64,000 nucleotides of DNA. Source: Allorhizobium sp. (GTDB lineage Bacteria > Pseudomonadota > Alphaproteobacteria > Rhizobiales > Rhizobiaceae). This document shows, one piece after another, positions 46,398 through 62,941 of the stretch. The DNA lies in contig JBHYDI010000007.1 in assembly GCA_051861045.1 (NCBI GenBank), positions 87,722 through 151,721 of the forward strand. The letters are read 5' to 3'. Below the pieces are notes generated by a model. That model was given only the letters and a program-made list of their open reading frames with translations. It was not told where the DNA came from and searched no databases. Every line of letters starts with the position of its first letter. The first letter of the stretch is position 1. Made by a program: the position numbers and the translations under genes.

Positions 46398-47366
46398 TCA
46401 TTCCAGGTCTTCGCGGCCTTTGCGGGTATCGGACGGCGCTTTTCCATATTGCGCGCGATAGCGGGCGGCAAAATACCCCATGTGTCGGAAGCCCCAGCGT
46501 GAGGCGATTTTCTCGATGCTTTCCTCCCCCGTTCCAGCAAGCAAATCATTATGGACGCGGCTGAGGCGCATCTGAAGAATGTAAGCGTTGGGGGTTGTCG
46601 ACAGATGATGCCTGAACGAATTCTGCAGTGTCCGAATGCTGGCGCCGGATCGGCGTGCCAACTCTTCGATGGCGAAATCCTGATCGGCATGTCGCTCGAG
46701 CCAGTCGATCGCGCGCTCAAGATGGCGGGGCAAGGTAGATCGCTCATCGGACCTGATCTCCTCCCTGGGCCAGAGACTGACGAACATCATGATTAGAGCA
46801 TCGCGGATCAGTGCGGGCGTGCCTGTGGTATCCGGACCCATCCCATTCGGGTCGAGTCCAGACAAAAGGTGTGCTGCTATCTGGTGGATGATGTCGATGC
46901 CTGCAGCGGTCGCAACATGAGCTTGCAGTGCAGCCAGGCCCCATCCGGCGCTTCCGTGGCTGCGGTTGATGTGCGGAGCCACCTGCTCGAACGGGATGAC
47001 CACGGAGAGTTTACGGGAACCTGGACATGCCGTCACCGTAACCTTTCGCGTGTCCTTTATCAGCACGGCACCACGGGCCGGAGCTTCGATCTCTTCATCT
47101 GCCGATTGAAAACAGAATCGGCCCTCTTCGATGAAATGGAGCTCAACTTGGTGGTGCTTCGGACATCCATAACGCACCCCGTATCCGGAGCTGGTCGAGA
47201 TCCGCCAAAGCGTAATGTTGCAGACCGAGGTGATGTTCGCCTGGATGTCAAACGGACCGGCTTCCTTGAGCCGCCAGAACTCCGACGGACGGAAAGTCTT
47301 CGCAGAGATTGACTGCGTCTCAAGTTCGTCTTGCGAACTTATACTGTACATCTTTAAGTCGGTCAC
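46398..47366 (-). CDS. AraC-family transcriptional regulator
   Basis: IEELARRSGASIRTLQNSF..IASRWGFRHMGYFAARYRAQYG..PS; more A/T-ending codons than core genes. Confidence 0.9.
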   Translation of the reverse strand: MTDLKMYSISSQDELETQSISAKTFRPSEFWRLKEAGPFDIQANITSVCNITLWRISTSSGYGVRYGCPKHHQVELHFIEEGRFCFQSADEEIEAPARGAVLIKDTRKVTVTACPGSRKLSVVIPFEQVAPHINRSHGSAGWGLAALQAHVATAAGIDIIHQIAAHLLSGLDPNGMGPDTTGTPALIRDALIMMFVSLWPREEIRSDERSTLPRHLERAIDWLERHADQDFAIEELARRSGASIRTLQNSFRHHLSTTPNAYILQMRLSRVHNDLLAGTGEESIEKIASRWGFRHMGYFAARYRAQYGKAPSDTRKGREDLE

Positions 47367-47550
47367 GGATCAATGCGGCAAGTTGGAATGTTTGCGCTAA
47401 ATATAGGTGTCATATATAAATAGTATAGCTTGCAACATGCCTCACGGCCAGTGCTCGCTTTGGCTTTTTTTGTACGTGCTTGACGGAAGATTGATTTGAG
47501 CCGCTGCGAATGCCCGGCACAGAACAGCGTTCGTGTTCGCTGTTTGGCAT

Positions 47551-47770
47551 GGACGTTCACCTCTTCCGCAAGCTGGAGGTCGAGCCGGCTCCCATGCTGC
47601 TCGCCTTCATCCTCGGGCCGGTGATGCAACAATTCCTGCGCCGGACGTTTTTCGTCTCCAAAAGCGCCCCAGCATCCTTTCCACCCGGCCGCTGAGTGCT
47701 GGCCTGCTCTTGATGGTTGTTCTGCCATCGGTCAGAAAGAAGCGCGAAGAAGCATTCCAGAATGGGTACC
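47551..47770 (+). pseudogene. frameshifted 3' remnant of tripartite tricarboxylate transporter TctA
   Basis: Two frames give FRKLEVEPAPMLLAFILGPVMQQFLRR and TRPLSAGLLLMVVLPSVRKKREEAFQ, matching the TctA C-terminus; rest of gene absent. Confidence 0.7.
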
Positions 47771-47862
47771 GGAGCAAGGAAGAAGCGGTAACCGCTGGGC
47801 AATCTTCCGCGAGACGTGCACACAGAGAGACCCGGGTGAATATCGAAACAGCGAGCTGAACT

Positions 47863-47920
47863 GCGGTTCGACTATTCGGGATCGGTTGCCGAACATCGGG
47901 GGTGGTCGAACCGCGCTTTT
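47863..47920 (+). terminator. hairpin plus T-run downstream of the tctA remnant
   Basis: gcggttcgac..gtcgaaccgc 10-bp stem with inner ttcgg/ccgaa, then gctttt. Confidence 0.4.
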
Positions 47921-48086
47921 GGATTTTGTGATGGTTGATGCACGTCCAGCAAAGCTAAGACGGGCCAGCAAATCCTTACCCAGAGCCCTTGCGGTCGGAC
48001 CCGACGGCGCAGTTGATCGCGCCCAAGGGTGGTCTAATCCGGGAGCCAGATTTCCGCTCCGCCGTCTCGCGTGGCGCAGTCGTGAA

Positions 48087-49565
48087 ATGAATGTCATCTC
48101 CTCAACTGGTCTGAACCGCATGGACAATTTCTCCGAACCGGCAAGCCAAAGGGTCGTCGGTTATGCCGCTGGCTTGGGTTCCCAGGTGAGGCGATGGGGA
48201 ACTGGGTTGAACAGAGATCCCCTTGCAGAGACGCTTGCCTCGCATTTTGGCCAGACGACGCGGTTGGCGGGTCCGATCCTCATGGGCCATCTCTCAAACT
48301 TCGCGATGACCACGACGACTTTGCTTCTCTTTGGCTGGATGGGCAGTGGTTCACTCGCAGCAGCGGGGCTTGCGATCCGTGTGGCTGTCAGCACGAATAT
48401 TCTGGCAGGTATTCTTCTTGTCGTCGGCGTTGTCGCCTCGAGTGCGAACGGGGGGCGGGACACCAAGCGAGTTTCCGGTGTTTATTGGAACGGCCTCTAC
48501 CTGGCATTTGCCCTGTCGGTGCTATCCTTTATCTGGATGACTGTTGCGCCCGGCCTGCTTGCCGTCCTTGGCCAACCTCCAGAAGTCGTGGCTGAAGCAG
48601 AACGAATTCTTCACATCTTGCGTTGGGGCGAACCAGCAAATCTGCTGCGTCTCGGGTTGATGCGCACCATGCTCCCAGCCCTTGGCATGACATGGATCCT
48701 CTATGCCCTTACGCCAGTCTCTTTGCTGTTTTATGCAATCGCAGGGTATGCGCTTGTTTCAGGCTTTCATGGCTTCGCACCGATGGGTGTTGTCGGAATT
48801 CCAGTCGCTCTGGTTGGAACGATATGGCTGACGGCGCTGGTCATGCTGGCTGCCGTCCACTTCGGGCCGAGCCGTTCCCTTATCCCCTTCACACGGATCC
48901 GATGGTCGCTCCTGTGGGAGCTTTTTCGGACTGGCCTGCCAATAGGAACCCTGCAGGGCGTTGACGGGATTTTCTTCCTGATTGCCACAGTCGTTGTCGG
49001 ACAGTTCGGGGCGGCTGCGCTCGCAGCGCACCAGATCGCATTGAACTTCGGCACCATCGCCTATTCGCTGGCGGTGTCGTTCGGTGACGCCGCAGCATTG
49101 CGCATCAGTTATCGGCGAGGGGCACTGGTTTTCAAGGATGCTCGGATCGCAGGCTTTGTTGGCGTCACCCTGGGCACGGTCTCGATGGCGGCTGCTGGAC
49201 TTGTTGTTCTCTCCTTTCCGAACCTCTTCATCGGTTTGTTCATCGACATCGCCGATCCCCGCAATGCTGCAACGCTGGCAGCGTCTCAGTCCCTGGTGCT
49301 CTTTGCCAGTCTCTTCATCTTCGCAGACGGGGTCTATGGGACCGGGATGGGCGTGCTTCGGGGACTGGGGGATAACCGCTACGCAATGGTGGTGGTGATC
49401 GTCGTCTACTGGGGTATCGGGCTCCCTCTGGGTGCGGCCTATCATCTGCTCGTTGGCTTCGGAATTGAGGAGGTCTGGTTGGGGCTTGCGACGTTGCAAG
49501 GCCTGATCGGGTTGGTCCTGATAAAGCGCTATGCCAAAGTCACGCGGCAGGATCCAAATGAGTGA
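48087..49565 (+). CDS. MATE-family efflux transporter
   Basis: About 12 TM; LAGPI, GLPIG, LAAHQIALN, ADG..GVLRGLGD; start uncertain (48087 or 48120). Confidence 0.88.
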   Translation: MNVISSTGLNRMDNFSEPASQRVVGYAAGLGSQVRRWGTGLNRDPLAETLASHFGQTTRLAGPILMGHLSNFAMTTTTLLLFGWMGSGSLAAAGLAIRVAVSTNILAGILLVVGVVASSANGGRDTKRVSGVYWNGLYLAFALSVLSFIWMTVAPGLLAVLGQPPEVVAEAERILHILRWGEPANLLRLGLMRTMLPALGMTWILYALTPVSLLFYAIAGYALVSGFHGFAPMGVVGIPVALVGTIWLTALVMLAAVHFGPSRSLIPFTRIRWSLLWELFRTGLPIGTLQGVDGIFFLIATVVVGQFGAAALAAHQIALNFGTIAYSLAVSFGDAAALRISYRRGALVFKDARIAGFVGVTLGTVSMAAAGLVVLSFPNLFIGLFIDIADPRNAATLAASQSLVLFASLFIFADGVYGTGMGVLRGLGDNRYAMVVVIVVYWGIGLPLGAAYHLLVGFGIEEVWLGLATLQGLIGLVLIKRYAKVTRQDPNE

Positions 49566-50688
49566 AGAGGAAATGGGTCCCGGAAAAACGGCACTGCATC
49601 ACGACCAGACGTGCTGCGTTCCAGAGCAGGTGCCGCCAGTTGATGCTGCGGATCTTGTCAGTCTGGCGGCTGCAGGAATGCCGATCCTGACCGGGCACGA
49701 GCCGGTTAATGTGGTTAAACGGTCTGTACCTCCCTTGTACGGGTCTCTGGATCGTCTCACTGGACTGCATCGTCGGGGTAGGCAGAAATGGACCACCGTG
49801 CCTGACAACATGCGCGGGTCGATCCTCTTCATCCTGTCGGTTGTGCTGTTCTGTATCATGATGGTTGCCATCAAGGAGATCGGCACGGGGCTGCCGTTGC
49901 CTCAGATATTGCTGATCCGCCAGGTGATCCTGACCGTGATACTTCTGCCGTTGCTGCCTGGTGGCATCTCGCGTGCACTCAAGACCCAATACCTGGGGAG
50001 ACACCTGCTGCGAGGGCTCGTCTGTCTCGGTTCGCAATACACCTATTTTCTGGCGCTTCTCTATCTGCCGCTCGCCGATATGACAGCACTCGGCTTCAGT
50101 CAGGTCATCTTCATGACCATTGCCGCCGTCGTTGTTCTCAAGGAAAACGTGGGTTGGCGGCGGTGGCTGGCAACAATGGTCGGCTTCGTTGGCGTCCTTA
50201 TCATGCTGAGACCGAGCAGCGGGACCATCGACGTCTATTCGCTGGTCGCTGTCTTGAGTGCGCTGCTTCTATGTGGTGTGACCATATCGATCCGGTTGAT
50301 GGCCAGGACCGAGGCGACTGAAACGGTGATGCTCTATCAATCCTTCGTGCTCTGCACGGCCTATGCGGTGCCGAGCATTGTGTGGTGGCAGTGGCCCAGC
50401 CAGAAGGAATGGATGCTCCTGGCAGTCATCGGCATCGTCGGAACGTTGGGACAGTATCTGTTCACGCTTGCATTTCGGGTGGCGGAGGCATCGGCGCTCG
50501 CACCTCTTGAATTCACCCGGCTTCTGATTGCCATAGTCCTTGGCTACTTGGTCTTTAGCGAGATACCGGAGCTATCGACCATGCTGGGTGCGCTGATTGT
50601 CATGGGCTCGACGATTTACACGGTGCGGAGAAATTCGCGGCATGAAGACAACCATGGACAGAAAGCGTTCCACGAATCAGGGCCGTAG
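49558..50688 (+). CDS. DMT/EamA-family transporter with long N-terminal extension
   Basis: Two EamA repeats (LKENVGWRRW..VGFVGVLIMLRP; AEASALAPLEF); overlaps the MATE stop by 8 bp. Confidence 0.88.
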   Translation: MSEEEMGPGKTALHHDQTCCVPEQVPPVDAADLVSLAAAGMPILTGHEPVNVVKRSVPPLYGSLDRLTGLHRRGRQKWTTVPDNMRGSILFILSVVLFCIMMVAIKEIGTGLPLPQILLIRQVILTVILLPLLPGGISRALKTQYLGRHLLRGLVCLGSQYTYFLALLYLPLADMTALGFSQVIFMTIAAVVVLKENVGWRRWLATMVGFVGVLIMLRPSSGTIDVYSLVAVLSALLLCGVTISIRLMARTEATETVMLYQSFVLCTAYAVPSIVWWQWPSQKEWMLLAVIGIVGTLGQYLFTLAFRVAEASALAPLEFTRLLIAIVLGYLVFSEIPELSTMLGALIVMGSTIYTVRRNSRHEDNHGQKAFHESGP

Positions 50689-50701
50689 GACGCCGGCCCT
50701 C

Positions 50702-51652
50702 TCAGCACGCGACCTTGGCCAGCTTGCTGGCCATCGGAATGCTTTCCATATGGGTGTCGATCAGACAATCGACGAAGCGGCGCGCGAGCTTGAATTCGCT
50801 GGAACTCGGTCCCGTCACTGCTGCGATGGCGTGCACCTTTCGGGTAAGATCCTGACGCAGCACCCGCAGCATGCCGGTTTCTACATGCGGCTGAGCCACG
50901 TGGTCAGGCAGATAGCCGATATTGCGGCCAGACAGGATCAGCGTCATATGAGCATGCGCGCCGTATCCAATGTCACCGCGGGTCGCAGCATTCCGGATCC
51001 GTTCGGGATGGAAGTGTTCGAGATGGCCGCGATTGGCATAGACAGCATTTTCGATCTGCTCCATCGTGATGTCTGAATCGCGGATGTGAAACAGCGGATG
51101 CGCCCGACCGCAATAGATCGCTGCCGCTTCCGGAAACAGCGGTTCGAAGGTCAGTTGGCTGAAGTGGTCGTCGGTCAGGCCGATCCCGACGTGAATGAGG
51201 CCGTCCGCCACATGGCCCGTCATCTGAAATCCCAGCATCACTTCCAGCTTGAAGCGCGCATTCGGATAATACTCAGCCAAACGACTGATGGCCTCTGCAA
51301 TGCGTGAACGCGGATTGTCCACGATATGGTCCTGGACGCCGATGATCAGTTCATGTCCGGCACTGTCATTGAGATTGGATGCACGCTGCTTGAAGCTCTC
51401 GACCGAGGCAAACAGGTCCTTGGCGGCCTGATAGACCACCTCGCCTTCATGATAGAGTTTGAATCCCTTCGGACCACGTTGGCAGAGCCGGACACCGAGA
51501 CGGATTTCCAGCGATTTCAGATACTCGCTCAGCATGGACTGCGAGAGGTTCAAGACCGACTGAGCAGCCGTAAAGCTGCCTTCCTCCACGATCGTGCAAA
51601 AGCAACGCAGCAGTTTGAGGTCTACATCGTATATCTGGGACAAATTCGACAT
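50702..51652 (-). CDS. LysR-family transcriptional regulator
   Basis: DLKLLRCF..EEGSFTAAQ..LSQS.LS..LE.RLG..LC.RG; divergent from the monooxygenase operon. Confidence 0.93.
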   Translation of the reverse strand: MSNLSQIYDVDLKLLRCFCTIVEEGSFTAAQSVLNLSQSMLSEYLKSLEIRLGVRLCQRGPKGFKLYHEGEVVYQAAKDLFASVESFKQRASNLNDSAGHELIIGVQDHIVDNPRSRIAEAISRLAEYYPNARFKLEVMLGFQMTGHVADGLIHVGIGLTDDHFSQLTFEPLFPEAAAIYCGRAHPLFHIRDSDITMEQIENAVYANRGHLEHFHPERIRNAATRGDIGYGAHAHMTLILSGRNIGYLPDHVAQPHVETGMLRVLRQDLTRKVHAIAAVTGPSSSEFKLARRFVDCLIDTHMESIPMASKLAKVAC

Positions 51653-51696
51653 TGCAAACCAGTTCTGACTGTTTGAGCCGCCCTAGTAAGGTCCTC

Positions 51697-51712
51697 AGCA
51701 AAGATTGTGCCA
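51697..51712 (-). promoter_or_regulatory. sigma54 (-24/-12) promoter of the LysR gene
   Basis: Minus strand TGGCACAATCTTTGCT, exact TGGCAC-N5-TTGC(A/T), about 45 bp upstream of ATG 51652. Confidence 0.7.
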
Positions 51713-51841
51713 ACACAAGAAACGCATTTGCGATCTTTGATAAAAGTCAACTTTTCAAAGGCTTGGAATCTGTGGCGCTCAAAGGGGGGCGCAAGTGAGC
51801 CATAGCGCAAATACGCCAACTGCTCATGTAAATGGCACTGC

Positions 51842-51860
51842 TTGACCGAAATGGTGCACC
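51842..51860. promoter_or_regulatory. candidate NtrC-type enhancer site
   Basis: TTGACCGAAATGGTGCA versus TGCACC-N4-TGGTGCA (two mismatches), 130-150 bp upstream of the sigma54 motif. Confidence 0.4.
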
Positions 51861-52135
51861 GCAACAGTTTCCGGTCATGGAATGGCAGCTTGCGTGGCTT
51901 ATTCGCCAAGGCTGAAAGTCGAAAATATTCCCGGAGGCTCCCTCAACAACCGCGCAAGATACTATGATTGCTGGGAAACGACCTGTTCGAAAAGCATCCA
52001 TCTTGACCAATCAAAGCATCGAGCTTTGCCGATGGTCACCCATGCTGCACTGCGATTAACGTTCCTTCAACCCCTGTAACTGCCAGCAATCCTCAGGCTG
52101 CGGCAGGTCTGACGGCCGCAAGGAAACAGAGCAAA

Positions 52136-53437
52136 ATGTCGAAGAGCTTTCACCTCGCCTGGTTCATGAATTTCTCGGTCGATGACTGGAATGCTCCGTT
52201 TTCGGCCGGTGGAAAGCCTTGGGATGGAAACTTCTATGTCGACATGGCAAAGGCGATGGAACGCGCCTGTTTCGACTACATCATGCTCGAAGACACGTTG
52301 ATGATCTCGGAAGCATATGGCCACAGCATGGAGGTCTACCTCAAGCATGCTCTGATGGGGCCGAAGAGCGATCCCATGCCGCTTGCGGCACTGATCGCCA
52401 GCAAGACAAGCAATCTCGGCGTTGTCGCCACCATGTCGACCATGGCCTATCCGCCCTTCATGCTCGCTCGTCTCTGTGCGACGGTCGACAGCATTTCCGG
52501 CGGGCGGTTCGGGTGGAATATCGTGACAAGCGGCGAAAATCTAGCCGCCCAGAATTTTGGAATGGACGAGCTACCGCCACGCCAGGACCGCTATGACATG
52601 GCCGACGAATATGTCGAACTCTGCAAGCAGCTCTGGGGCAGTTGGGACCAGGATGCCGTCGTGCTCGACCGTGAGACCGGCACCTATGCCGACTACCGCA
52701 AGGTCAGACCCATCAATTTCGTTGGCAAATACTACAAGTGCCGCGGGCCGCTGAACTGCGTGCCGGGGCCCCAAGGACGCCCGACCTTCGTGCAGGCAGG
52801 GGGATCGACGCGCGGTCGCCAGTTCGCGGCGATGACCGCCGACAGCATTATTGCAGCCGCATCCGGGATCGAAGCGATGAAGGAATATCGCGATGATATT
52901 CGCGCCCGTGCGGCAGCCGGCGGGCGTGATCCGGACGAAGTGAAGGTCTTCTTCATCGTCACCCCCGTGTTGGCGGAGACGGAAGCTGCCGCCAAGGCCA
53001 AGCTCGAGGACTATATCAGCTCACCCGAATACCAGGTGAAGACGCTGGCCTCTATCAGCTCGGTCACCGATATCGACTTCTCGCAATTCGAGCTCGACGA
53101 AGAACTGCCTCGGCTGACCACCAATGGCGAACAGGGCTCGCTAGACGCCTTCGCGCAGTGGGGACGCGGCAAGACGCTGCGACAGCTGATCAGCGACCGG
53201 GCGACGCGTGGTCTCGACGGTGTCGTGGGCACGCCTGATCAGGTTGCCAAACGGCTGGGCGAGGTGATGGAAGCCGTTGGCGGTGATGGCTTCCTGATCA
53301 GTTCGCCCTTCCAGAAAGTCAGCCGTCAGTACGTCACCGAGATTTGCGAAGGCCTCGTGCCGGCCCTGCAGCGCCGTGGCCTGACACGCACGGCCTACAC
53401 GAAGCCGACGCTGCGCGAGACCCTTCGCGAGTTCTAG
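52136..53437 (+). CDS. NtaA/DmoA/SnaA-family FMN-dependent monooxygenase 1
   Basis: AKAMERACFDYIMLED, ARLCATVDSISGGRFGWNIVTS, GPLN, QAGGS..G.QFAA..AD, LVPALQRRGL, TLRE. Confidence 0.93.
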   Translation: MSKSFHLAWFMNFSVDDWNAPFSAGGKPWDGNFYVDMAKAMERACFDYIMLEDTLMISEAYGHSMEVYLKHALMGPKSDPMPLAALIASKTSNLGVVATMSTMAYPPFMLARLCATVDSISGGRFGWNIVTSGENLAAQNFGMDELPPRQDRYDMADEYVELCKQLWGSWDQDAVVLDRETGTYADYRKVRPINFVGKYYKCRGPLNCVPGPQGRPTFVQAGGSTRGRQFAAMTADSIIAAASGIEAMKEYRDDIRARAAAGGRDPDEVKVFFIVTPVLAETEAAAKAKLEDYISSPEYQVKTLASISSVTDIDFSQFELDEELPRLTTNGEQGSLDAFAQWGRGKTLRQLISDRATRGLDGVVGTPDQVAKRLGEVMEAVGGDGFLISSPFQKVSRQYVTEICEGLVPALQRRGLTRTAYTKPTLRETLREF

Positions 53438-53491
53438 GAACCCGCGCCGGGGATGAACGATCGATCTGCATCAGACAAGAGGACACCCGAC

Positions 53492-54796
53492 ATGCCAAAG
53501 CGCTTTCATCTTGGTTGGTTCATGAATTTTGCCGTCAGCGAGTGGAACCATCCTTTTGGTGCCGGAGGCCGGCCATGGGACGGGAACTTCTACATCGACA
53601 TGGCCAAGGCGATGGAGCGCGCGTGTTTCGACTATATCATGCTTGAAGATACCTTGATGATTTCAGAAGCTTATGGCCACAGCACAGAGGCCTATCTGAA
53701 GCATGCGATCATGGGCCCAAAAGCGGATCCCGCACCAATGGCGGCCTTGATCGGCGCCAACACAAAGCATCTCGGGGTCGTCGCCACCATGTCGACCATG
53801 GCCTATCCGCCCTTCATGCTCGCCCGTCTTTGTTCGACGCTCGACAGCATTTCCGGCGGGCGCTTTGGTTGGAATATTGTGACCAGTGGCGAGAATCTCG
53901 CCGCCCAGAACTTCGGCATGGACGAACTCCCACCCCGCCAGGATCGCTACGACATGGCGGACGAATATGTCGAGCTCTGCAAGCAGCTCTGGGGCAGCTG
54001 GGACCAGGATGCCGTTGTGCTGGATCGTGAGACCGGCACCTATGCCGATTTCAGCAAGGTGCGGCCGATCGATTTTGTCGGCAAATACTACAAGTGCCGT
54101 GGGCCATTGAACTGCGTGCCTGGCCCACAGGGTCGCCCGACCTTCGTGCAGGCGGGGGGCTCGCCGCGCGGGCGCCAGTTTGCGGCAATGACCGCCGACA
54201 GTATCATTGCGCCCTCGTCAGGTGTGGATGGCATCAAGGCCTACCGCGACGACGTCCGCGCCCGGGCGCGAGCCGGCGGACGCGATCCAGATGAGATCAA
54301 GGTCCTGTTCGTCATTGCCCCCGTGCTTGGAGAAACAGAAGCGGAAGCGCATGCGAAGTTCGCGCGGATATCGGCGCATCCCGACTATATCGAGAAAGTC
54401 CTCGCCTCGATCAGTTCGATCACCGATATCGATTTCTCGCAGTTCGACCTGGACGCCGAGCTGCCGCACCTGACCACCAATGGCGAACAGGGATCGCTGG
54501 ACGCCTTTGCGCAATGGGGCAGCGGCAAGACATTGCGCCAGATCTGCATGGAGCAGGTATCGCGCGGAATCGACGGACTCGTCGGAACGCCCGATCAGGT
54601 TGCCGACCGTCTCGGGGAGATCATGGAAGAGGTCGGTGGTGACGGTTTCCTCATCACACGCCCGTTCACGACGACAATCAGCCGCCAATACATCCTCGAA
54701 ATCTGCGAGGGCCTCGTCCCTGCGCTTCAGCGCCGGGGCCTAACCCGGACCGAATACACCAAGTTAACCCTGCGCGAAACGCTGCGGGAATTCTGA
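53492..54796 (+). CDS. NtaA/DmoA/SnaA-family FMN-dependent monooxygenase 2 (tandem paralog of 1)
   Basis: Same motifs; roughly 80% identical to gene 1 by eye; ATG 53492 after a gagga RBS. Confidence 0.93.
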   Translation: MPKRFHLGWFMNFAVSEWNHPFGAGGRPWDGNFYIDMAKAMERACFDYIMLEDTLMISEAYGHSTEAYLKHAIMGPKADPAPMAALIGANTKHLGVVATMSTMAYPPFMLARLCSTLDSISGGRFGWNIVTSGENLAAQNFGMDELPPRQDRYDMADEYVELCKQLWGSWDQDAVVLDRETGTYADFSKVRPIDFVGKYYKCRGPLNCVPGPQGRPTFVQAGGSPRGRQFAAMTADSIIAPSSGVDGIKAYRDDVRARARAGGRDPDEIKVLFVIAPVLGETEAEAHAKFARISAHPDYIEKVLASISSITDIDFSQFDLDAELPHLTTNGEQGSLDAFAQWGSGKTLRQICMEQVSRGIDGLVGTPDQVADRLGEIMEEVGGDGFLITRPFTTTISRQYILEICEGLVPALQRRGLTRTEYTKLTLRETLREF

Positions 54797-54846
54797 TCAC
54801 CTTTGGATGCCACGACCAGGAGCCAACATCCGAAAAGAGGTCCCCG

Positions 54847-55407
54847 ATGACAGATGCAATCGATGAGATCATCTCCCAGACGACAGGGCCCGAGGGCGGC
54901 CTGACATCGCGCCCTCCCGTCGAAGCTCAGGACTATCGGAACGCCATGGCCAAGCTCGCGGCGGCGGTGAACATCATCACCAGCACAGGCGAGAATGGAT
55001 GGTGCGGCTTTACCGCATCCGCAGTGTCGAGCGTCACGGACAGCCCGCCGACGCTGCTTGTTTGCATCAAGCGCACAGTCCAGGCCCATGGGACGATTGC
55101 CGCGTCGGGCGTCCTTTGCGTCAATACGGTCGCCGGACCGCAGGAGGAGCTTGCGATGACCTTTGCCGGATCGGGCGGCAACAAGGATATGGCACAGCGT
55201 TTCGCGGGCGGAGATTGGAGCCAGCTTGTCACCGGGGCGCCTGTGTTGACCGGTGCCATCGTCAACTTTGACTGCCGCGTGACGGGTGTCAGTACAATTG
55301 GCACACATGACGTCTTTTTCTGCGAGGTCCTTGCCGTGGCCGGCCAAGATGCCATGGAAAGCGGGGCCCTCGTATATTTCGATCGGAAATTTCACGCCGT
55401 CGCCTGA
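54847..55407 (+). CDS. flavin reductase (HpaC/RutF-like)
   Basis: RNAMAKLAAAVNIIT..GFTASAVSSVTDSPPTLLVCI, GTHDVF, LVYFDRKF. Confidence 0.92.
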   Translation: MTDAIDEIISQTTGPEGGLTSRPPVEAQDYRNAMAKLAAAVNIITSTGENGWCGFTASAVSSVTDSPPTLLVCIKRTVQAHGTIAASGVLCVNTVAGPQEELAMTFAGSGGNKDMAQRFAGGDWSQLVTGAPVLTGAIVNFDCRVTGVSTIGTHDVFFCEVLAVAGQDAMESGALVYFDRKFHAVA

Positions 55408-55458
55408 GGCTCTCGGGCGTGTCTCGAGCAAATGACGTGCGAACGATAGGAGACTGCA

Positions 55459-56169
55459 GTGAACATCATGACCCCGGAATTTCAGAGGACGAAGGCGCTG
55501 CCGCTCGGAACCGTAGCGAGTGCTGCGGAGATTATCGAGGAGGCACGACAGGGGCGTATGTTCATTCTCGTTGATGACGAAGATCGCGAAAACGAAGGCG
55601 ACATCATAATCCCGGCATGTTTCGCCGACGCCGATGTCATCAACTTCATGGCGCGGAACGCATGCGGGCTGATCTGCCTCGCCATCACGCGCGAACGCGC
55701 AGAAGCCCTGGCATTGCCGCCAATGGCACCTGTTGCCAGTGCGCCCATGAAGACGGCCTTTACCGTCTCCATTGAAGCCCGCGACGGCGTGACCACGGGG
55801 ATATCATCACATGACAGGGCGCGCACGGTCGCGGTTGCCATCGATCCCGAGGCTGGGCCGTCAGATCTGGTGATGCCGGGCCATGTCTTTCCGATCGTTG
55901 CCCGCGATGGTGGGACGATCACGAGAGCGGGCCATACCGAAGCGGCGGTGGATGTGGCCCGTCTCGCCGGACTGCCGCCATCCGGCGTCATCTGCGAGGT
56001 CATGAACGAGGACGGGACCATGGCGCGCCTGCCGGACCTGATGACCTTTGCCATGCGTCATGGAATGAAGGTCGGAACCATTGCCGATCTTATCGCCCAC
56101 CGCTACGCCATCGGCGATCATCCCTTCCCTGATGCAGACGCGGCCGCTCGTCATGCTGCGATGCGGTGA
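55459..56169 (+). CDS. ribB: 3,4-dihydroxy-2-butanone-4-phosphate synthase, stand-alone domain
   Basis: VDDEDRENEGD, GLICL, TAFTVSIEA, TTGISSHDRA, RAGHTEA, VICEVMNEDG; GTG start after aggag. Confidence 0.95.
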   Translation: MNIMTPEFQRTKALPLGTVASAAEIIEEARQGRMFILVDDEDRENEGDIIIPACFADADVINFMARNACGLICLAITRERAEALALPPMAPVASAPMKTAFTVSIEARDGVTTGISSHDRARTVAVAIDPEAGPSDLVMPGHVFPIVARDGGTITRAGHTEAAVDVARLAGLPPSGVICEVMNEDGTMARLPDLMTFAMRHGMKVGTIADLIAHRYAIGDHPFPDADAAARHAAMR

Positions 56170-56188
56170 CATCGCTGGCACCTCCACC

Positions 56189-57256
56189 ATGAGGATTCGA
56201 CTGTCCGTCCTCGATCAATCGCTCGTGTCTGCCGGGCATGTGCCAGCGCAAGCAATTCGGGGCAGCGTCTCGCTTGCCCGGGCCTGCGAAGGCTTCGGCT
56301 ATAGTCGCTTTTGGGTCTCGGAGCATCATGGCAATGCGGCCATGGCGGGTTCGGCGCCAGAAGTCCTGCTTGGTGCACTCGCCATGGCGACGCGCACAAT
56401 GAGGATTGGCAGTGCTGGAGTTATGTTGCCGCATTACGCTCCATTGAAGGTTGCCGAACAGTTCCGTGTGCTCGAAGCACTGGCACCTGGGCGCATCGAT
56501 CTCGGGCTTGGTCGCGGTCCCGGTGCCGATCGCCAGACGGCCTATGCCTTGAGACCCGATGCCCTGGACAATCCCCTCTCCATGTCTGCGATGGACAGCT
56601 TTCCGACCAATGTCGAGGACACACTTGCCTTGGTTCGCGGCGAGCCACTCGGTGACGACCATGTCTTCGCCGGAGTTTTTGCGCAACCCCAGGGGCCAAC
56701 GGCACCACAGCCCTGGATCGTCGGGTCGGGCAAATACTCGGCACGTCTGGCGGGTCATCTCGGGTTGCCCTTCTGTCACGCGCATTTCTTTGGCAGCGAC
56801 AGCGAAGCTGCCCAGGCGATCGGTGCCTATCGCGCAGGCTTTCGCGCCTCGCCGATCCTGACAGAACCCCTGGTCGGCCTGTGCCTCATTGCGATGGCGG
56901 CCCCAACCAGCGCCGAAGCCGAGCGCCTTTTCCTCTCCTACGCCCCCTGGCGTGTCTCAAGAGATGCCGGACGTATGGTGCCATTGCAGCCGCCTGACCA
57001 GGCGATCGCAGCGGCTGTCGGCCTCGACCAGGATACGATCCAGCATCTGCGCAAAACGGCGGTGTTCGGGACTCCCGACGAGGTCTACGCCAGGATTGCC
57101 GGGCTCAAGACCGATTACGCAATAGACGAGATGGTGATCCTCGCGCCGGCATATGAGCTCTCTGATCGCATGGCCTCCTATGGCCTGATTGCGGGGATCA
57201 ATCAAACACAGGCAACGGAGGACCGGCCGGGTCGGGCGTCCGAGTTCTGGCTATGA
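56189..57256 (+). CDS. luciferase-like (LLM) monooxygenase, group 1 / CmoO-YhbW type
   Basis: LSVLDQ, RFWVSEHH, AGSAPEVLL, RIGSAGVMLPHYAPLKVAEQF, GRIDLGLGR. Confidence 0.92.
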   Translation: MRIRLSVLDQSLVSAGHVPAQAIRGSVSLARACEGFGYSRFWVSEHHGNAAMAGSAPEVLLGALAMATRTMRIGSAGVMLPHYAPLKVAEQFRVLEALAPGRIDLGLGRGPGADRQTAYALRPDALDNPLSMSAMDSFPTNVEDTLALVRGEPLGDDHVFAGVFAQPQGPTAPQPWIVGSGKYSARLAGHLGLPFCHAHFFGSDSEAAQAIGAYRAGFRASPILTEPLVGLCLIAMAAPTSAEAERLFLSYAPWRVSRDAGRMVPLQPPDQAIAAAVGLDQDTIQHLRKTAVFGTPDEVYARIAGLKTDYAIDEMVILAPAYELSDRMASYGLIAGINQTQATEDRPGRASEFWL

Positions 57257-57284
57257 CGGTCCACAAACCATCGGAGACTTCGTG

Positions 57285-57824
57285 ATGAAAGAGATCGACG
57301 CCATTCCACCGACAACGTCCGAGTTGCTCACCATTGATCAAGGCACGTTCTGGCGCACCCTTGGCAACCGCGCCACCGGTATGACAATCGTCACGGCCAT
57401 GAGTGACGAGGGACCTGTCGGATTTCTCGGCCTGTCCGCGACGCATGTGGCGGCCGACCCCGCCACCATGTTGGTCTCTATCGATCGCAAAACCAGCGCG
57501 CTCGCAGGCGTCCTGTCTCAGGGGCACTTTGCAGTCAACTTTCTCGATGCAGCCGCTGCCCATGTCGCGACAGCGTTCGGAGGTAAGTCCGGACTGCGGA
57601 ATGCCGATCGCTTCGTCCACGGTGAATGGGCGACACTTGCAACCGGTGCTCCGGTGTATTGTCAGGCTCTTGGCGTTTTCGATTGTCTCGTGGAGACCGT
57701 CGTTGAGCACGGCAATGTGTCCATCGTCATAGGAAGGGTGGTTGCTGCCTCCTCCCGCGCCGATGGCGAACCCCTGCTTTTCTTCCGCGGCAAGACGATC
57801 GAGGGCCTTCACCAGTCAGAGTAA
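57285..57824 (+). CDS. flavin reductase family protein
   Basis: FWRTLGNRATGMTIVT, DPATMLVSID, HFAVNFL, PLLFFRG. Confidence 0.88.
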   Translation: MKEIDAIPPTTSELLTIDQGTFWRTLGNRATGMTIVTAMSDEGPVGFLGLSATHVAADPATMLVSIDRKTSALAGVLSQGHFAVNFLDAAAAHVATAFGGKSGLRNADRFVHGEWATLATGAPVYCQALGVFDCLVETVVEHGNVSIVIGRVVAASSRADGEPLLFFRGKTIEGLHQSE

Positions 57825-58224
57825 CTGGCTGGAGGGATGAAGTGCAGATTTGCTGCAATCATAGTCATGCCCACAGGCGGACTGCCATGAGTGGCGTCCG
57901 TCGCAGAACGTGCTGCGGCATCTGGAAAGCACTGTCGATTTATTTGCGCTCTACTTGCAGGCGTCCCGAGAGGGGCCATGCAATCCTGCATGCGGTGAAT
58001 ATGCAGCTTCTGGTGATGACGGTCTACCGGCGCGCTATTCGTTGATTAAAAAGGCAGCATCGCGATGCAATAAGATGCGCCAAAAGCTTCGGTTCAGCCG
58101 GAGTTCATTTTCAGTTTTCGCCATGTTTATCAGCGGGAAACGTCGCTACGGTCCTCATACTGCGATGCAGCAAAGCAAGATCCTCAAGTGAGGTAGGTAG
58201 CGGCTGCGAAGGAGAGCGGATTTC

Positions 58225-59538
58225 ATGCCAACGAATATGTTTCATCTTGGATGGTTTTTGCAGGGCTCAAGCATCGGCGGCTGGGGCGATAAATGGTCTG
58301 GGAATATTGCCAGAGAATGGATGCATCCCAGCGCCTATTTGGACCTCGCGCGTGCGATGGAGCGCGCATGCTTCGACTATATCCTCATTGAAGACTCGAT
58401 CTATGTTGGCCAGAATTGGCAGGATTCCCGCGAAATATTTCTAACCAACGGCATCAGTGTTCCGCGCCAGGAACCCTCCGTCGTTGCGACACTGATGGCG
58501 GCTGCGACCACACGGCTTGGCATCGTTCCCACTTTGTCCACCTTTGCCTATCACCCCTATCTCACCTCGCGGATCGTCGGCACGCTCGACCAGATCTCGT
58601 TGGGGCGTGGCGGCTGGAATGTGGTGACCGGGAGCTCGGACCTTTCTGCTCAGAATTTCGGGATGGAGAAGCTCGCAGACCATGATGAACGCTATGTCAT
58701 GGCCGAAGAATACATGCAGATATGCCAGGGGCTCTGGGGGTCCTGGGAGCCGGGCGCGATCGTCGGTGATCGTGAGACCGGGGTGCTCATCGACCACAAC
58801 AAGGTCCACACGATCGATTACAAGGGCAAGTACTACGCCTCACGCGGTCCGCTGAATTCCGGCCCGCTTCCGCAGGGGCAGCCTGTTATTGCTCAGGCCG
58901 GCGGTTCGAAGAGCGGCAAGGGATTTGCTGCCCGGTATGCCGACACCATTGTCGCGGCCCCCAAGGGCGTCGAAGCAATGAAACAGTATCGCAATGACGT
59001 CCGCACCGAGATGGCGGCCATCGGGCGGGATCCAGACAAGTGCAAGGTTCTCTTCCTCGTCCAGCCAATTGTGACAGAGACGATGACGGAAGCAGGCGAG
59101 CGCATTGCCGAGCGCAAGGCCGCATCCGAGAAATACATCGACCAACGTCTGGCGCGCTTCGGCTGGAGCACCAATCTCGACCTTTCTGGCTGCGATCTCG
59201 ACGCCCCTATCGGCGAACTTACCACCAACGGTCATCAGTCCAGCCTGGCCCAGTTCCTTGCGCGCTCATCCGGCAAGACACTGCGTGAGGCGATTATCGA
59301 GCATACCACCAGCGGCTATTGCGTCGACATGGTCGGCACGCCCGACAGCATTGCGAGCCAGATGGCAGAGGTCATGCAGGAGGTCGGCGGCGATGGTTTT
59401 CTCATCGAACAACCGAATGTCAACCGCCGCACGATCGCCTCGATCACCGACGGCCTCGTTCCCGTTTTGCAGCATCGCGGACTGACACGCAACGCCTACG
59501 CGCATGAGCAGCTACGCGACAATCTTCTGGACTTTTAG
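58225..59538 (+). CDS. NtaA/DmoA/SnaA-family FMN-dependent monooxygenase 3
   Basis: ARAMERACFDYILIED, LDQISLGRGGWNVVTG, GPLN, QAGGS..G..FAARYAD, LVPVLQHRGL, LRDNL. Confidence 0.93.
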   Translation: MPTNMFHLGWFLQGSSIGGWGDKWSGNIAREWMHPSAYLDLARAMERACFDYILIEDSIYVGQNWQDSREIFLTNGISVPRQEPSVVATLMAAATTRLGIVPTLSTFAYHPYLTSRIVGTLDQISLGRGGWNVVTGSSDLSAQNFGMEKLADHDERYVMAEEYMQICQGLWGSWEPGAIVGDRETGVLIDHNKVHTIDYKGKYYASRGPLNSGPLPQGQPVIAQAGGSKSGKGFAARYADTIVAAPKGVEAMKQYRNDVRTEMAAIGRDPDKCKVLFLVQPIVTETMTEAGERIAERKAASEKYIDQRLARFGWSTNLDLSGCDLDAPIGELTTNGHQSSLAQFLARSSGKTLREAIIEHTTSGYCVDMVGTPDSIASQMAEVMQEVGGDGFLIEQPNVNRRTIASITDGLVPVLQHRGLTRNAYAHEQLRDNLLDF

Positions 59539-59601
59539 CATCCGCAGACACGGCCCGATCCGCCAACGCCTTCCCAATTTTCAATTCCAGGGAGTCCTCT
59601 G

Positions 59602-60432
59602 ATGTCTATGCATTCGAAAACCGTATTGACTGTCGCCTCGATGCTCCTGGGTGCATTGACACTCACGGCCCGCCCGGCTCTGGCAGAAAAACTCCTGCTG
59701 GGCAACGAAGGGGTTTATCCGCCCTTCAGCGTCGTCGCGTCTGACGGAACCCTGACAGGCTTCGAACCGGCGCTCGCACGTGAGATGTGCAAGCGAATGA
59801 ACGTCGAGTGCGAATTTGTTGTCATGGATTTCAAGGCGCTGATCCCGTCGATCCTGCAAGGCAAGTTCAACATCCTGGCAAGCCAGCTGTCACCGACCCC
59901 CGAGCGTCTTGAAAAGCTGACATATGCGATGCCGATTGTTTACAATCCTGCGACTTTTGTCGTGCGCAAGGACAGCAATCTCACCTTCACGGCTGAGGGG
60001 CTTGCCGGCAAATCGCTCAAGCTTGGCCTTCAACGGGGCGCATCCTCTATCCCTTACGTCGAAAAGAACTTCGCAGGCCTGTTCACGCCTGTCCTCTACG
60101 ACAATCCCGACCAGATGCGTCTCGATCTGCTGGCCGGCCGCGTCGACCTGATCTTCGATTCCAAGATCAACTGGACGCTCGAACTGATCAACAAGCCTGA
60201 TGGCAAGGACTATATGCTCGCGGGCGGCGATCACTGGCTCGGTGATCCTGCGATTCCCCCGAACGAGCGCGGCTACAGCTGGGCTGTGCGCAAGGGTGAC
60301 GAGGCGATTGTCGAGCGCATGAACGTCGCCCTGAAATCGATCATCGAAGACTGCACCTACACCAAGATCCGCAAGGAATATCTCGACATCACGATACTCG
60401 CTGCCGAGGAGGCCTGTGCCGCCTCCGAATAG
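59602..60432 (+). CDS. polar amino acid ABC transporter substrate-binding protein 1 (HisJ/ArgT family)
   Basis: Signal peptide; GNEGVYPPFS, EMCKRMNVEC, DFKALIPSI..GKF, DLLAGRVD. Confidence 0.92.
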   Translation: MSMHSKTVLTVASMLLGALTLTARPALAEKLLLGNEGVYPPFSVVASDGTLTGFEPALAREMCKRMNVECEFVVMDFKALIPSILQGKFNILASQLSPTPERLEKLTYAMPIVYNPATFVVRKDSNLTFTAEGLAGKSLKLGLQRGASSIPYVEKNFAGLFTPVLYDNPDQMRLDLLAGRVDLIFDSKINWTLELINKPDGKDYMLAGGDHWLGDPAIPPNERGYSWAVRKGDEAIVERMNVALKSIIEDCTYTKIRKEYLDITILAAEEACAASE

Positions 60433-60569
60433 GGCGTTGCAACAGCTGCGCACCTCACCTGTCCACCTGTCTCCAACCAATGGGAATGAAGTCCATGGGC
60501 ATGCTCTCAACACCAGGCATCAGCAGGTATTCTTTCTCGAACCAGGCCGGCGATCGACGACAGGCCAAG

Positions 60570-61388
60570 GTGCGCAACCTGAAGGTTGTCGTGGCGGGCA
60601 TAGTGGCCGTTCTTCTTGGCCATCTGCCGGCCGCGGCTGAAACACTAAAACTCGGGAATGAGGGCGTTTATCCGCCTTTCAGCATGGTCGATGCCAATGG
60701 CACTCTGACCGGCATCGAGGCCGACCTCGCCCGGGAGATGTGCAAGCGGATGGAGGTCGAATGCGAAATCATCGTGATGGATTTCAAAGCGCTGATCCCA
60801 TCGCTGCTTCAGGGCAAGTTCGACATCCTCGTCTCCCAGGTAACACCGACAGCTGAGCGCAAGGAAAAGATGCTGTTCAGCACCCGCATCGTCGCCAATC
60901 CGATGGTGTATGTCCTTCCTGCCAATGGGAATTATACGCTTACCAAAGAAGGACTTGCCGGCAAGGGCCTGAAGATGGGGCTGCAACGTGGTGGCGCGCA
61001 TATAAAGGTCGCGGAGGATATGTTCGGCGATGCCGTGGAATATGTCCTCTATGACAATCCCGACCAAATCCATCTCGATATGGTGGCAGGGCGCATCAAC
61101 ATGTCCTTCGAGGCCAAGCTGAACGTCGTCGTTGATTTCCTCAGCAAGCCGGAAGGCAAGGCGTTTGAGATTGTCGGCGAAGAATACTGGATTGGTGAGC
61201 CCTCCGTCCCTGAGAACGAGCGCGGCTTGTCATGGGTTACCCGAAAGGGAGAAGAGGCCCTGGTGGCCCGTATGGACACGGCGATTAAGGCAATCATGGC
61301 GGATTGCACCTACACCGCCATCCGCAAGAAATACATGGATATCGCCATTCTACCCGAGGACGAGGCCTGCGAAGGCAAGACAAACTGA
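60570..61388 (+). CDS. polar amino acid ABC transporter substrate-binding protein 2
   Basis: Paralog of SBP1. GTG 60570 gives a clean signal peptide; the ORF track starts at 60480. Confidence 0.9.
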   Translation: MRNLKVVVAGIVAVLLGHLPAAAETLKLGNEGVYPPFSMVDANGTLTGIEADLAREMCKRMEVECEIIVMDFKALIPSLLQGKFDILVSQVTPTAERKEKMLFSTRIVANPMVYVLPANGNYTLTKEGLAGKGLKMGLQRGGAHIKVAEDMFGDAVEYVLYDNPDQIHLDMVAGRINMSFEAKLNVVVDFLSKPEGKAFEIVGEEYWIGEPSVPENERGLSWVTRKGEEALVARMDTAIKAIMADCTYTAIRKKYMDIAILPEDEACEGKTN

Positions 61389-61430
61389 ACACGCCCTCTT
61401 TGTTGCTCTCACGGATGAAAGGGTTCCGGC

Positions 61431-62129
61431 ATGGAAATATCATCAGCGGAGTTTTGGGGATATGTACGTCAGATCGGCGGTGGCGCGGTCGTCACAATGC
61501 AGCTCTTTGTGTCCGGCTTTGTCTTGGCGCTCCTCCTTGGAACGTTGATCGGGATTGTTACGCTCTCACGAAACATCGTGATCCAGACGATCTGGCGCGT
61601 TTATTCCTCCATCATCATGGGCGTCCCGTCACTGCTGGTCATCTTCCTGCTCTATTATGGAGGAAGCGCCATCCTGACTGGTCTTTTCGGGATGTCGCGT
61701 TCGATCGATGTCACGCCTTTCGGCGCCGGCTTGACGGCGCTGACCATCGTTTACGCGGCCTATGTCGCCGAACTGCTTCATGGCGCAGTACGCAATCTGC
61801 CAAGGGGACAATTCGAGGCATGCGCAGCGCTTAATCTCAGTACCTTTCACGCCTGGCGACACGTGATTCTGCCGCAGGTCGCTCGTCTCGCATTTCCGGG
61901 CCTCGTGAACATCTGGCTGATCGTTCTCAAGGACACCCCGTTGGTGTCTCTTGCGGGCCTGAACGATCTCGTTGCCAATGCGAAAATCGCCGCCGGCGCC
62001 ACCAACGAGCCTTTTGTTTTCTTCATCGCAGCGTCGCTGTTCTTCATCGTTTTCAGCGCCCTGACCATGCCACTCGCCGCCCGTATAGAAGTTCGCTTCA
62101 ACCGCGGCCTAGCCAGGGTGAACACATGA
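61431..62129 (+). CDS. polar amino acid ABC permease (HisQ/OccQ-like)
   Basis: GVPSLLVIFLLYYG, AYVAELLHGA..LPRGQFEA, LKDTPLVSL. Confidence 0.93.
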   Translation: MEISSAEFWGYVRQIGGGAVVTMQLFVSGFVLALLLGTLIGIVTLSRNIVIQTIWRVYSSIIMGVPSLLVIFLLYYGGSAILTGLFGMSRSIDVTPFGAGLTALTIVYAAYVAELLHGAVRNLPRGQFEACAALNLSTFHAWRHVILPQVARLAFPGLVNIWLIVLKDTPLVSLAGLNDLVANAKIAAGATNEPFVFFIAASLFFIVFSALTMPLAARIEVRFNRGLARVNT

Positions 62130-62941
62130 ACGCGCTCGTGATCGACATTGAACTTGTCTGGGAGTCGTTGCCAGCCATGCTCAACGGGCTGATGACGACG
62201 GTGCTGGTGACCGTCATTGTTCTGGTTCTCGGCATGATTTTCTGCGTTCCGCTGACGTTGGCGAGAATGTCGTCAAACCGGGCATTTGCCTTGCCGGCGG
62301 CCTTCTTCGTGATGTTCTTCCGCGGCGCGCCACTGCTGATCCTGCTCTATCTTGTCTATTATGGCTTTGGCCAGATCGAGGCACTGCGGGACGGGCCGCT
62401 TTGGTTCATCTTCGGCAGCGCATTCGCCTGTGCTGTGATCGGGCTGACGCTCAATCACCTTGCCTTCATGGTCGACGTCGTGAGGGGGAGTCTTGAGGCG
62501 GTTCCCGCTGGTCTCAGTGAAGCCTCGAATTCGCTCGGGATCTCGCCGCGCGACACCTTCCGATACATCCAGCTGCCGCTGGCAATGCGTTACGGAATCA
62601 AGGCTTACCAGAACGAAGTCGTCATGCTGACCAAAGGCACGGCAGTCATCAGCGTGATCACCATCATCGACCTGACAGCGGTCGCCAATGAGGTTTTCGA
62701 GAGAACCTACGATCCATTCACGCCAATGCTGACTGTCGCTGCCTTCTACTGGATACTGGTCAACACGATGCGGCTTGGCTTTCGCCGATTTGAAGCCCAC
62801 CTCAACCGTCATCATGCGGCCGAAGATGCCCGCCGCAATCAGACCTCAGCCAGAACTGCCGGATCGACCATGTTGCGCCCACTCGAATGGCTGAAGTCGA
62901 GGCGCGCGATCCTCGCTGCCCACAAGGAGCATGCCATATGA
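62126..62941 (+). CDS. polar amino acid ABC permease (HisM/OccM-like)
   Basis: FFRGAPLLILLYLVYYG, NEVVMLTKGTAVIS; ATGA overlap. Confidence 0.93.
   Translation: MNALVIDIELVWESLPAMLNGLMTTVLVTVIVLVLGMIFCVPLTLARMSSNRAFALPAAFFVMFFRGAPLLILLYLVYYGFGQIEALRDGPLWFIFGSAFACAVIGLTLNHLAFMVDVVRGSLEAVPAGLSEASNSLGISPRDTFRYIQLPLAMRYGIKAYQNEVVMLTKGTAVISVITIIDLTAVANEVFERTYDPFTPMLTVAAFYWILVNTMRLGFRRFEAHLNRHHAAEDARRNQTSARTAGSTMLRPLEWLKSRRAILAAHKEHAI

Follow-up and report, generated by a model that had tools for sequence, protein, structure and literature searches.

The window analysed here is a 64,000-nucleotide stretch of a 4.76-Mb Allorhizobium genome of 61.5% G+C (C7:87722-151721), in which a 483-bp spacer at 51653-52135 separates a gene for a LysR-family transcriptional regulator, read on the minus strand, from a divergent operon of monooxygenase, reductase and transporter genes. 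A sigma-54-type (-24/-12) element in this spacer faces the regulator gene and has a counterpart in each of the 31 orthologous loci compared; very probably it is a functional promoter. We propose a two-tier circuit in which phosphorylated NtrC would switch on the LysR-family gene through this promoter under nitrogen limitation, and the LysR protein would in turn activate the divergent operon, and we assign this explanation as a whole a probability of roughly 0.6.

The plus strand at 51697-51712 reads AGCAAAGATTGTGCCA, the minus strand TGGCAC-AATCT-TTGCT. All 11 specified positions of the consensus TGGCAC-N5-TTGCW are matched (51712-51697, minus strand), the GG and GC dinucleotides are 10 bp apart and the first base of the motif, which faces the LysR open reading frame (ORF), lies 60 nt from its ATG. 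The C of the GC at -12 predicts a transcription start at about 51686 and a 5' untranslated region of about 34 nt. An earlier note on this DNA had reported an exact TGGCAC-N5-TTGCT here, on the minus strand and pointing at the LysR gene; its sequence and coordinates are confirmed, and its assignment as a sigma-54 promoter is backed by genome-wide specificity and by conservation. The match is the only one in the window, where 0.07 were expected and seven of 100 shuffles gave at least one. Six exact copies of TGGCAC-N5-TTGCW exist in the genome, all 60-162 nt upstream of an ORF and correctly oriented; they precede dctA (beside the gene for the DctD activator), a gene for an nrtA-like binding protein, a rutA homolog, another ATP-binding cassette (ABC) binding-protein gene, the gene of a small secreted protein and the LysR gene itself. 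Five of them fall inside a crude non-coding mask, and the sixth, the dctA promoter, was misclassified by that mask. The genome has a single rpoN gene (Sigma54_DBD 237 bits, 528-aa frame) with an intact RpoN box, ARRTVAKYR.

The orthologous LysR loci (n = 31) represent several families of Hyphomicrobiales; their proteins are 63-72% identical, with two near-identical relatives in addition. They come from Mongoliimonas, Methylobrevis, Chthonobacter, Acuticoccus, Hyphomicrobiaceae metagenome-assembled genomes (MAGs), many Ancylobacter, Starkeya and other Xanthobacteraceae genomes. A GG-N10-GC element is present 59-98 nt upstream of the LysR ATG in all 31. It takes the form TGGCAC-N5-TTGC(G/T) in Pleomorphomonadaceae and one uncultured alphaproteobacterium, GGGCAC-, AGGCAC- or TGGCAT-N5-TTGC in Acuticoccus and a Hyphomicrobiaceae MAG, and an invariant GCGGCGC(A/G)C-N-TTGC(T/A) in Xanthobacteraceae, while the N5 spacer differs among orthologs (AATCT, GAAGG, GGAGG, ATTCC, TATTG, ACAAT). 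The N5 bases and the surrounding DNA vary freely from lineage to lineage, the pattern expected of a functional -24/-12 element. The element is absent from two non-orthologous LysR genes whose proteins are 28% identical, and a profile-based scan for more distant LysR relatives returned only the same orthologous group and promoterless non-orthologs of at most 28% identity.

That the motif is a chance match, the LysR gene being read from an ordinary weak sigma-70 promoter, is hardly credible in the light of these data. Base composition does predict some 4-6 exact matches per genome (40 composition-matched permuted motifs gave a mean of 6.2 matches, with a mean of 1.35 and a maximum of 4 in the non-coding mask), but all six genomic copies are placed as promoters, with the window copy at the right orientation and distance from its ATG, and the element persists in 31 of 31 orthologs although their spacers cannot be aligned and their N5 bases differ. 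A scan of the spacer between the LysR and monooxygenase genes for a sigma-70 consensus found no match.

Of the 23 orthologous loci fetched with flanks of 4 kb (L001-L023), 21 pair the LysR gene with a divergent NtaA gene. The exceptions are L004, where a binding-protein gene lies in between, and L006, which has no divergent gene. In L006 the LysR gene stands after an ABC ATPase gene and before ribB, and a LysR box, an exact TGC-N11-GCA and the sigma-54 element are still found upstream of it. L006 and L069 lie on one contig of a Hyphomicrobiaceae MAG, on which the LysR ortholog occurs twice, both times behind a -24/-12 element of its own.

A sigma-54 promoter is silent until an enhancer-binding ATPase acts on it. 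The activator domain Sigma54_activat (PF00158) gave six strong matches in the genome, on contigs C1, C6 and C13, and two marginal ones, on C16 and C17; none was found on C7, the contig that holds the window, in keeping with the earlier note's remark that the window encodes no sigma-54 activator. Since NtrX and the C1:551k protein lack GAFTGA, they cannot contact sigma-54 (Table 1). The GAFPGA regulator of C1 was rejected as the cognate activator: its kinase and TctCBA locus is without a sigma-54 promoter. The protein is local and probably not linked to sigma-54; it might belong to the activator family and yet work without sigma-54. NtrC is the only shared, non-local, sigma-54-competent activator, because the others lack GAFTGA or serve local targets. 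NtrC activates sigma-54 promoters under nitrogen limitation, and from the sequence evidence its phosphorylated form probably activates the LysR promoter as well.

A functional sigma-54 promoter could also answer to a different activator, such as the C6 MobR/XylR-like V4R protein, DctD or one acting from solution, in which case the signal would be a substrate or a carbon cue. We consider this unlikely, although it accords with the statistically marginal NtrC sites of the window and with the Pseudomonas SfnR/sfnFG system, in which luciferase-like monooxygenases (LLMs) are under a sigma-54 activator other than NtrC. The enhancer of the C6 MobR-like protein, TTTCACCATTTGATGAAA, moreover shares CACCATTT with TTGACCGAAATGGTGCA, the spacer site named as NtrC-like in the earlier note. 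This likeness, however, covers one half only, the other half agreeing at 4 of 9 positions in our own alignment, and the C6 protein was rejected as the cognate activator. The spacer has no site of the DctD type (TGTGCG-N-CGCACA, the form found at dctA), and each of the non-NtrC activators adjoins its own target. Acuticoccus keeps the LysR promoter with only three activators (NtrC, NtrX and one local two-component activator) and A. radicis keeps it with four, NtrC being the sole non-local one that they share; no activator is encoded within the 4-kb flanks of any orthologous locus fetched.

Table 1. Features of the spacer and its flanking genes (window coordinates) and candidate activators encoded elsewhere in the genome
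Feature	Position	Strand	Remarks
LysR-family transcriptional regulator gene, 316 aa	50702..51652	-	Pfam HTH_1 and LysR_substrate; gene served by the putative sigma-54 promoter
Sigma-54 (-24/-12) promoter element TGGCAC-AATCT-TTGCT (TGGCACAATCTTTGCT)	51697..51712	-	GG 51711-51710, GC 51699-51698
Best NtrC-type site TGCTCATGTAAATGGCA	51821..51837	.	Exact TGC-N11-GCA, A/T-rich centre; centred at -143; 4 bp from TTGACCGAAATGGTGCA
NtrC-like site TTGACCGAAATGGTGCA of the earlier note	51842..51858	.	Centred at -164 from the predicted start; one perfect NtrC half, one poor half
Conserved LysR-type box, core ACCATCGGCAAAGC	52017..52036	core on -	Within CATCG-N8-CGATG; about 100 nt upstream of the monooxygenase ATG
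NtaA/DmoA-family flavin mononucleotide (FMN)-dependent monooxygenase gene, divergent operon gene 1	52136..53437	+	NCBIfam TIGR03860, 405 bits (cut-off 280)
NtrC	C13		TIGR01818, 698 bits (cut-off 558.6); GAFTGA present (GHEKGAFTGAQT); sigma-54 competent, no adjacent target
NtrX	C13, 3.9 kb downstream of NtrC		GAFTGA absent
C1:551k protein	C1:551k		GAFTGA absent
DctD			Beside dctA and the dctA sigma-54 promoter; local target
MobR/XylR-like V4R activator	C6		Divergent from an aldehyde dehydrogenase gene with its own sigma-54 promoter; local target
DctD-like response regulator	C1:282002-283351		GAFPGA for GAFTGA; DctB-like kinase and tctCBA locus without recognisable sigma-54 promoter

Enhancer sites were scored with a symmetrised 17-bp NtrC matrix derived from the enhancers of sigma-54-driven glnK, glnB and glnII in this genome and in 14 LysR-ortholog genomes. 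The strict E. coli consensus TGCAC-N7-GTGCA was tried and discarded, since the local glnK and glnB enhancers often read TGCCC-N7-G(C/G)GCA or have single good halves; the matrix was used instead because that consensus is too strict for these genomes. The local motif, TGC(A/C)C-N7-G(T/G/C)GCA with an A/T-rich centre, agrees with the Sinorhizobium meliloti NtrC motif TGC-N11-GCA, which has been validated by electrophoretic mobility-shift assay and footprinting (PMC10746234).

The centres of TGCTCATGTAAATGGCA and TTGACCGAAATGGTGCA are 21 bp apart, or two helical turns. Both sites fall within a block that a related Rhizobium MAG (L002) has conserved while the flanks have diverged; over the whole spacer L002 is 87% identical to the window, with TGCTCATGTAAATGGCA unchanged and TTGACCGAAATGGTGCA retained with changes in its spacer. 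The earlier note had drawn attention to a motif at 51842-51858, at enhancer distance; the coordinates are confirmed, the site being centred 164 nt upstream of the predicted start. Its perfect half, GGTGCA, is part of an 8-bp palindrome, GGTGCACC, at 51853-51860. Relative to TGCACC-N5-GGTGCA, TTGACCGAAATGGTGCA has two mismatches, both in one half, and the window holds three matches at that tolerance where 3.9 are expected (about 0.012 per 200 bp), so that only the position of TTGACCGAAATGGTGCA is notable and not its motif match. Matrix scores at other sigma-54 promoters of the genome are 10.9 bits for the nrtA-like gene, 9.8 for a binding-protein gene (SBP373) and 7.3 for rutA, with 2.8 for dctA and 1.7 for the aldehyde dehydrogenase promoter served by the MobR-like activator as controls; by these scores the LysR promoter, at 9.8 bits for TGCTCATGTAAATGGCA, falls among the presumed nitrogen-regulated promoters.

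Across the orthologs, the DNA upstream of the promoter is enriched in NtrC-like sites (Fisher over six family-level lineages, p ~1e-3). Spacers of the Xanthobacteraceae contain a conserved block, TGGnCAAnCnnTG(G/T)GCA, that scores 11-15 bits (shuffle p 0.001-0.015), with a TTGGGCA half-site 30 bp further upstream, and the block resembles the AATTG(A/G/T)GCA elements conserved upstream of glnK in the same genomes. An exact TGC-N11-GCA is also present in Methylobrevis, in one Hyphomicrobiaceae MAG and in one Xanthobacteraceae MAG. In the Xanthobacteraceae loci (L007-L022, about 3760-3860 in locus coordinates) ACCATCGCGAAAAGCCCAAGCGATGTT, which is the LysR box, TTGGGCAG and TGGnCAAnCnnTGkGCAAT follow one another at fixed spacing over about 85 bp; between the last block and the sigma-54 promoter, indels change the distance by about 45 bp. 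The last two blocks could be NtrC sites or could belong to an extended LysR footprint.

Several findings weigh against the proposed circuit. At the promoter, the -24 region of the Xanthobacteraceae is CGGCGC (CGGCGC-N5-TTGCT) rather than TGGCAC; among 24 public runs with the locus or a relative, the four examined are assembled contigs, without direction or start sites. At the enhancer, the best NtrC-like site of the window is only marginal (p = 0.02 when compared with non-coding windows of the genome and 0.085 when compared with dinucleotide shuffles of the spacer, which is locally richer in AT), and TTGACCGAAATGGTGCA, at 5.7 bits, is at chance level (p ~0.16, from 190-bp genomic non-coding windows with an equal or better site), all of these matrix p-values being approximate because the matrix was seeded with a literature consensus and has about 21 training sites, some from closely related genomes. 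The cross-species enrichment comes mainly from the Xanthobacteraceae, where the block can be read equally well as a direct repeat (TGGGCA-N5-TGTGCA) or as a palindrome and may belong to the LysR footprint because its distance to the LysR box is fixed. Methylobrevis and Acuticoccus have no significant NtrC-like site.

The earlier note had NtrC acting through 51842-51858. NtrC itself is a plausible activator; the site as named does not by itself bear this role out, being a half match and at most the weaker part of an enhancer with two sites. A similar division applies to the conservation of its two motifs in orthologous spacers: the sigma-54 element is conserved throughout, and TTGACCGAAATGGTGCA occurs in near-identical relatives only, being absent as such from the distant orthologs.

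The second tier of the circuit concerns the LysR box. Its core, ACCATCG(G/C)(C/G)AAA, is present in every orthologous spacer examined, and the regulator, with HTH_1 and LysR_substrate domains, a divergent operon and a conserved T-N11-A-type box, has the attributes of a divergent LysR-type regulator; the box at 52017-52036 is the probable site through which it controls the operon. Upstream of the monooxygenase operon neither a sigma-54 element nor a sigma-70 consensus match was found in a scan and in our own reading of the spacer. The sole sigma-54 candidate for that operon, TGGTCAC-N-CTGCA, was read by eye and rejected for its wrong spacing.

According to the proposed mechanism, sigma-54 holoenzyme would rest in a closed, silent complex at 51712-51697. 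On nitrogen limitation, phosphorylated NtrC bound to the two-site enhancer (51821-51860, about 140-165 bp upstream) would loop to the promoter and open it, with an AT-rich inverted repeat at 51737-51750 possibly helping the DNA to bend. The LysR protein then made would bind the ACCATCGGCAAAGC box, probably together with a substrate-derived co-inducer, and activate the divergent operon from a sigma-70-type promoter, yielding monooxygenases, reductases, RibB and an amino-acid-type ABC importer. The outcome would be an AND gate of nitrogen limitation and substrate. As for the two-tier circuit set out in the earlier note, its tiering follows from the sigma-54 promoter and has a precedent in NtrC and Nac, while its NtrC step is plausible.

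The divergent operon opens with the NtaA/DmoA-family monooxygenase gene and a second copy of it. Next come genes for a RutF-like flavin reductase, RibB, an MsnO8-type LLM, another reductase and a third NtaA-like protein, and then the transporter genes as assigned by Pfam, two for family-3 binding proteins, two for permeases and one for an ABC ATPase, the operon extending to 63714. A nitrogen-scavenging role for the cluster is somewhat favoured. Enzymes of the NtaA/DszA/SsuD family are often induced by sulfur starvation, and sigma-54 by itself is not a nitrogen signal, the Pseudomonas SfnR/sfnFG sulfone system being sigma-54 dependent.

The cluster might scavenge sulfur in the manner of the B. 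subtilis ytmI operon, with the sigma-54 promoter reflecting sulfur or general starvation, a reading that appears improbable. The component classes are those of ytmI: on the transporter side two family-3 binding proteins with two permeases and an ATPase, on the enzyme side a group-1 LLM and NtaA-family enzymes, and besides these a flavin-supply gene and a divergent LysR gene. This resemblance of the gene set to the sulfur-regulated ytmI/cmo operon counts against a nitrogen role. However, no SfnR-like, sulfur-linked sigma-54 activator was found among the activators of the genome, and the other exact sigma-54 promoters serve genes of nitrogen or carbon acquisition (nrtA-like, rutA, dctA). Proteins induced by sulfur starvation are generally sulfur-poor; most of the cluster proteins exceed the genome median in Cys plus Met, 10 of 13 standing at the 71st-97th percentile of long ORFs, which is the opposite of sulfur sparing and weakly disfavours a sulfur-starvation role. 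This argument is uncontrolled, because a search for a positive control found no clear ssu operon in the genome (the only SsuD-like match reaches 241 bits against a cut-off of 518 and has a tripartite ATP-independent periplasmic (TRAP) transporter/GntR context). The evidence thus leans, indirectly, towards the earlier note's preference for nitrogen scavenging over sulfur starvation.

The type of circuit is already known from the NtrC-Nac-sigma-70 cascade of Klebsiella and E. coli, and the mechanism is conventional: a LysR-family gene on a sigma-54/NtrC promoter couples nitrogen limitation to sigma-70 operons, as it would here if NtrC is the activator. The LysR protein of the window does not qualify as a Nac ortholog: its matches to NCBIfam equivalogs all stay below the cut-offs (best 68.6 bits, against cut-offs of at least 250), and no Nac model is among its top 25 NCBIfam matches. 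Unlike Nac, a global adaptor, it seems to serve a single divergent operon, where the conserved box lies, as a dedicated local regulator, and it probably depends on a co-inducer, which Nac does not require. In E. coli, nac is a target of RpoN and NtrC (PMC8743547), and Nac is a LysR-type regulator of nitrogen assimilation operons (PMC4987338).

Another RpoN/NtrC target of E. coli is rutA, and the LLM flavin monooxygenase RutA with the reductase RutF releases nitrogen (PMC8743547). The rutA homolog of the present genome (C9:71762) has an exact TGGCAC-N5-TTGCT and a RutR-like TTGACCATCCGGTAAAA box upstream, and therefore E. coli-type sigma-54 control of pyrimidine-nitrogen salvage seems to be kept; a RutF-like reductase is also encoded in the cluster under study. 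In rutABCDEFG the sigma-54 promoter drives the enzymes directly and the TetR-type RutR adds substrate control, whereas here sigma-54 would drive the regulator only, with the enzymes one tier lower, and the monooxygenases belong to the NtaA/DmoA family and not to RutA.

The YtlI (AscR)/ytmI system of B. subtilis and Listeria (tcyJKLMN-cmoO-cmoJ-ribR) has nearly the same gene inventory, in a comparison of the transporter, monooxygenase, flavin-supply and LysR genes, and there too the transcription of the divergent LysR activator is the controlled step. Both the ytmI operon and YtlI are sulfur-regulated (10.1101/2021.09.07.459368). The signal in that system is sulfur or cysteine, with the CymR/CysK repressor on a sigma-A promoter, in contrast to the enhancer-dependent sigma-54 promoter with NtrC-like sites described here. 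The Pseudomonas SfnR/sfnFG system is alike in its sigma-54-dependent LLM monooxygenase and flavin reductase and differs in its dedicated activator, which is under CysB control and has sulfur limitation as its signal; no such activator was found in this genome.

The locus adds an alphaproteobacterial example of a probable NtrC-to-LysR cascade. For a cluster that lacks a known substrate, the sigma-54 promoter that several families retain on the regulator gene gives the only hint from regulation as to physiology. The enzyme family is usually read as one of sulfur starvation; the promoter points instead to enhancer-dependent control, most likely by nitrogen limitation, and nitrogen limitation together with candidate substrates is the growth condition expected to switch the pathway on. 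More tentatively, the locus may represent a conserved module, possibly spread horizontally in Hyphomicrobiales, in which an NtrC/sigma-54-driven and effector-dependent LysR protein, a local analog of Nac, gates the release of nitrogen from an amino-acid-like compound by several monooxygenases that supply their own flavin. If this is true, it would constitute a previously undescribed nitrogen-scavenging pathway under two-tier AND-gate control.

Most of the cluster and its neighbours (46398-63714) lie below the G+C content of the genome, at 56-60% against 61.5%, with a third-codon-position G+C fraction of 0.62-0.75, and the LysR orthologs are patchily distributed over Rhizobiaceae, Pleomorphomonadaceae, Acuticoccus and Xanthobacteraceae. 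Both observations would fit a horizontal spread in which the module travelled with its promoter.

The inverted repeat at 51737-51750, TTGACTTTTATCAA (TTGA-N6-TCAA, in agreement with T-N11-A), is centred at about -57 and separated by about 25 bp from the -24 element downstream of it. The surrounding stretch of about 118 bp (51653-51770) shows nearly 100% identity with L002. In Mongoliimonas and Chthonobacter a similar place is taken by another inverted repeat, TTAAGT-N4-ACTTAA. The repeat at 51737-51750 is possibly a DNA-bending or IHF-like site or an autoregulatory LysR-type site. A proper IHF site between enhancer and promoter was sought and rejected, no good WATCAANNNNTTR match being found beside this AT-rich repeat. 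Two further plus-strand strings containing TGGCA occur near the enhancer, TGGCACTGCTTGACC and TGGCAGCTTGCGTGGC (51830-51845 and 51885-51900); in neither is the -12 GC correctly spaced, and they are probably parts of NtrC-like sites and not promoters.

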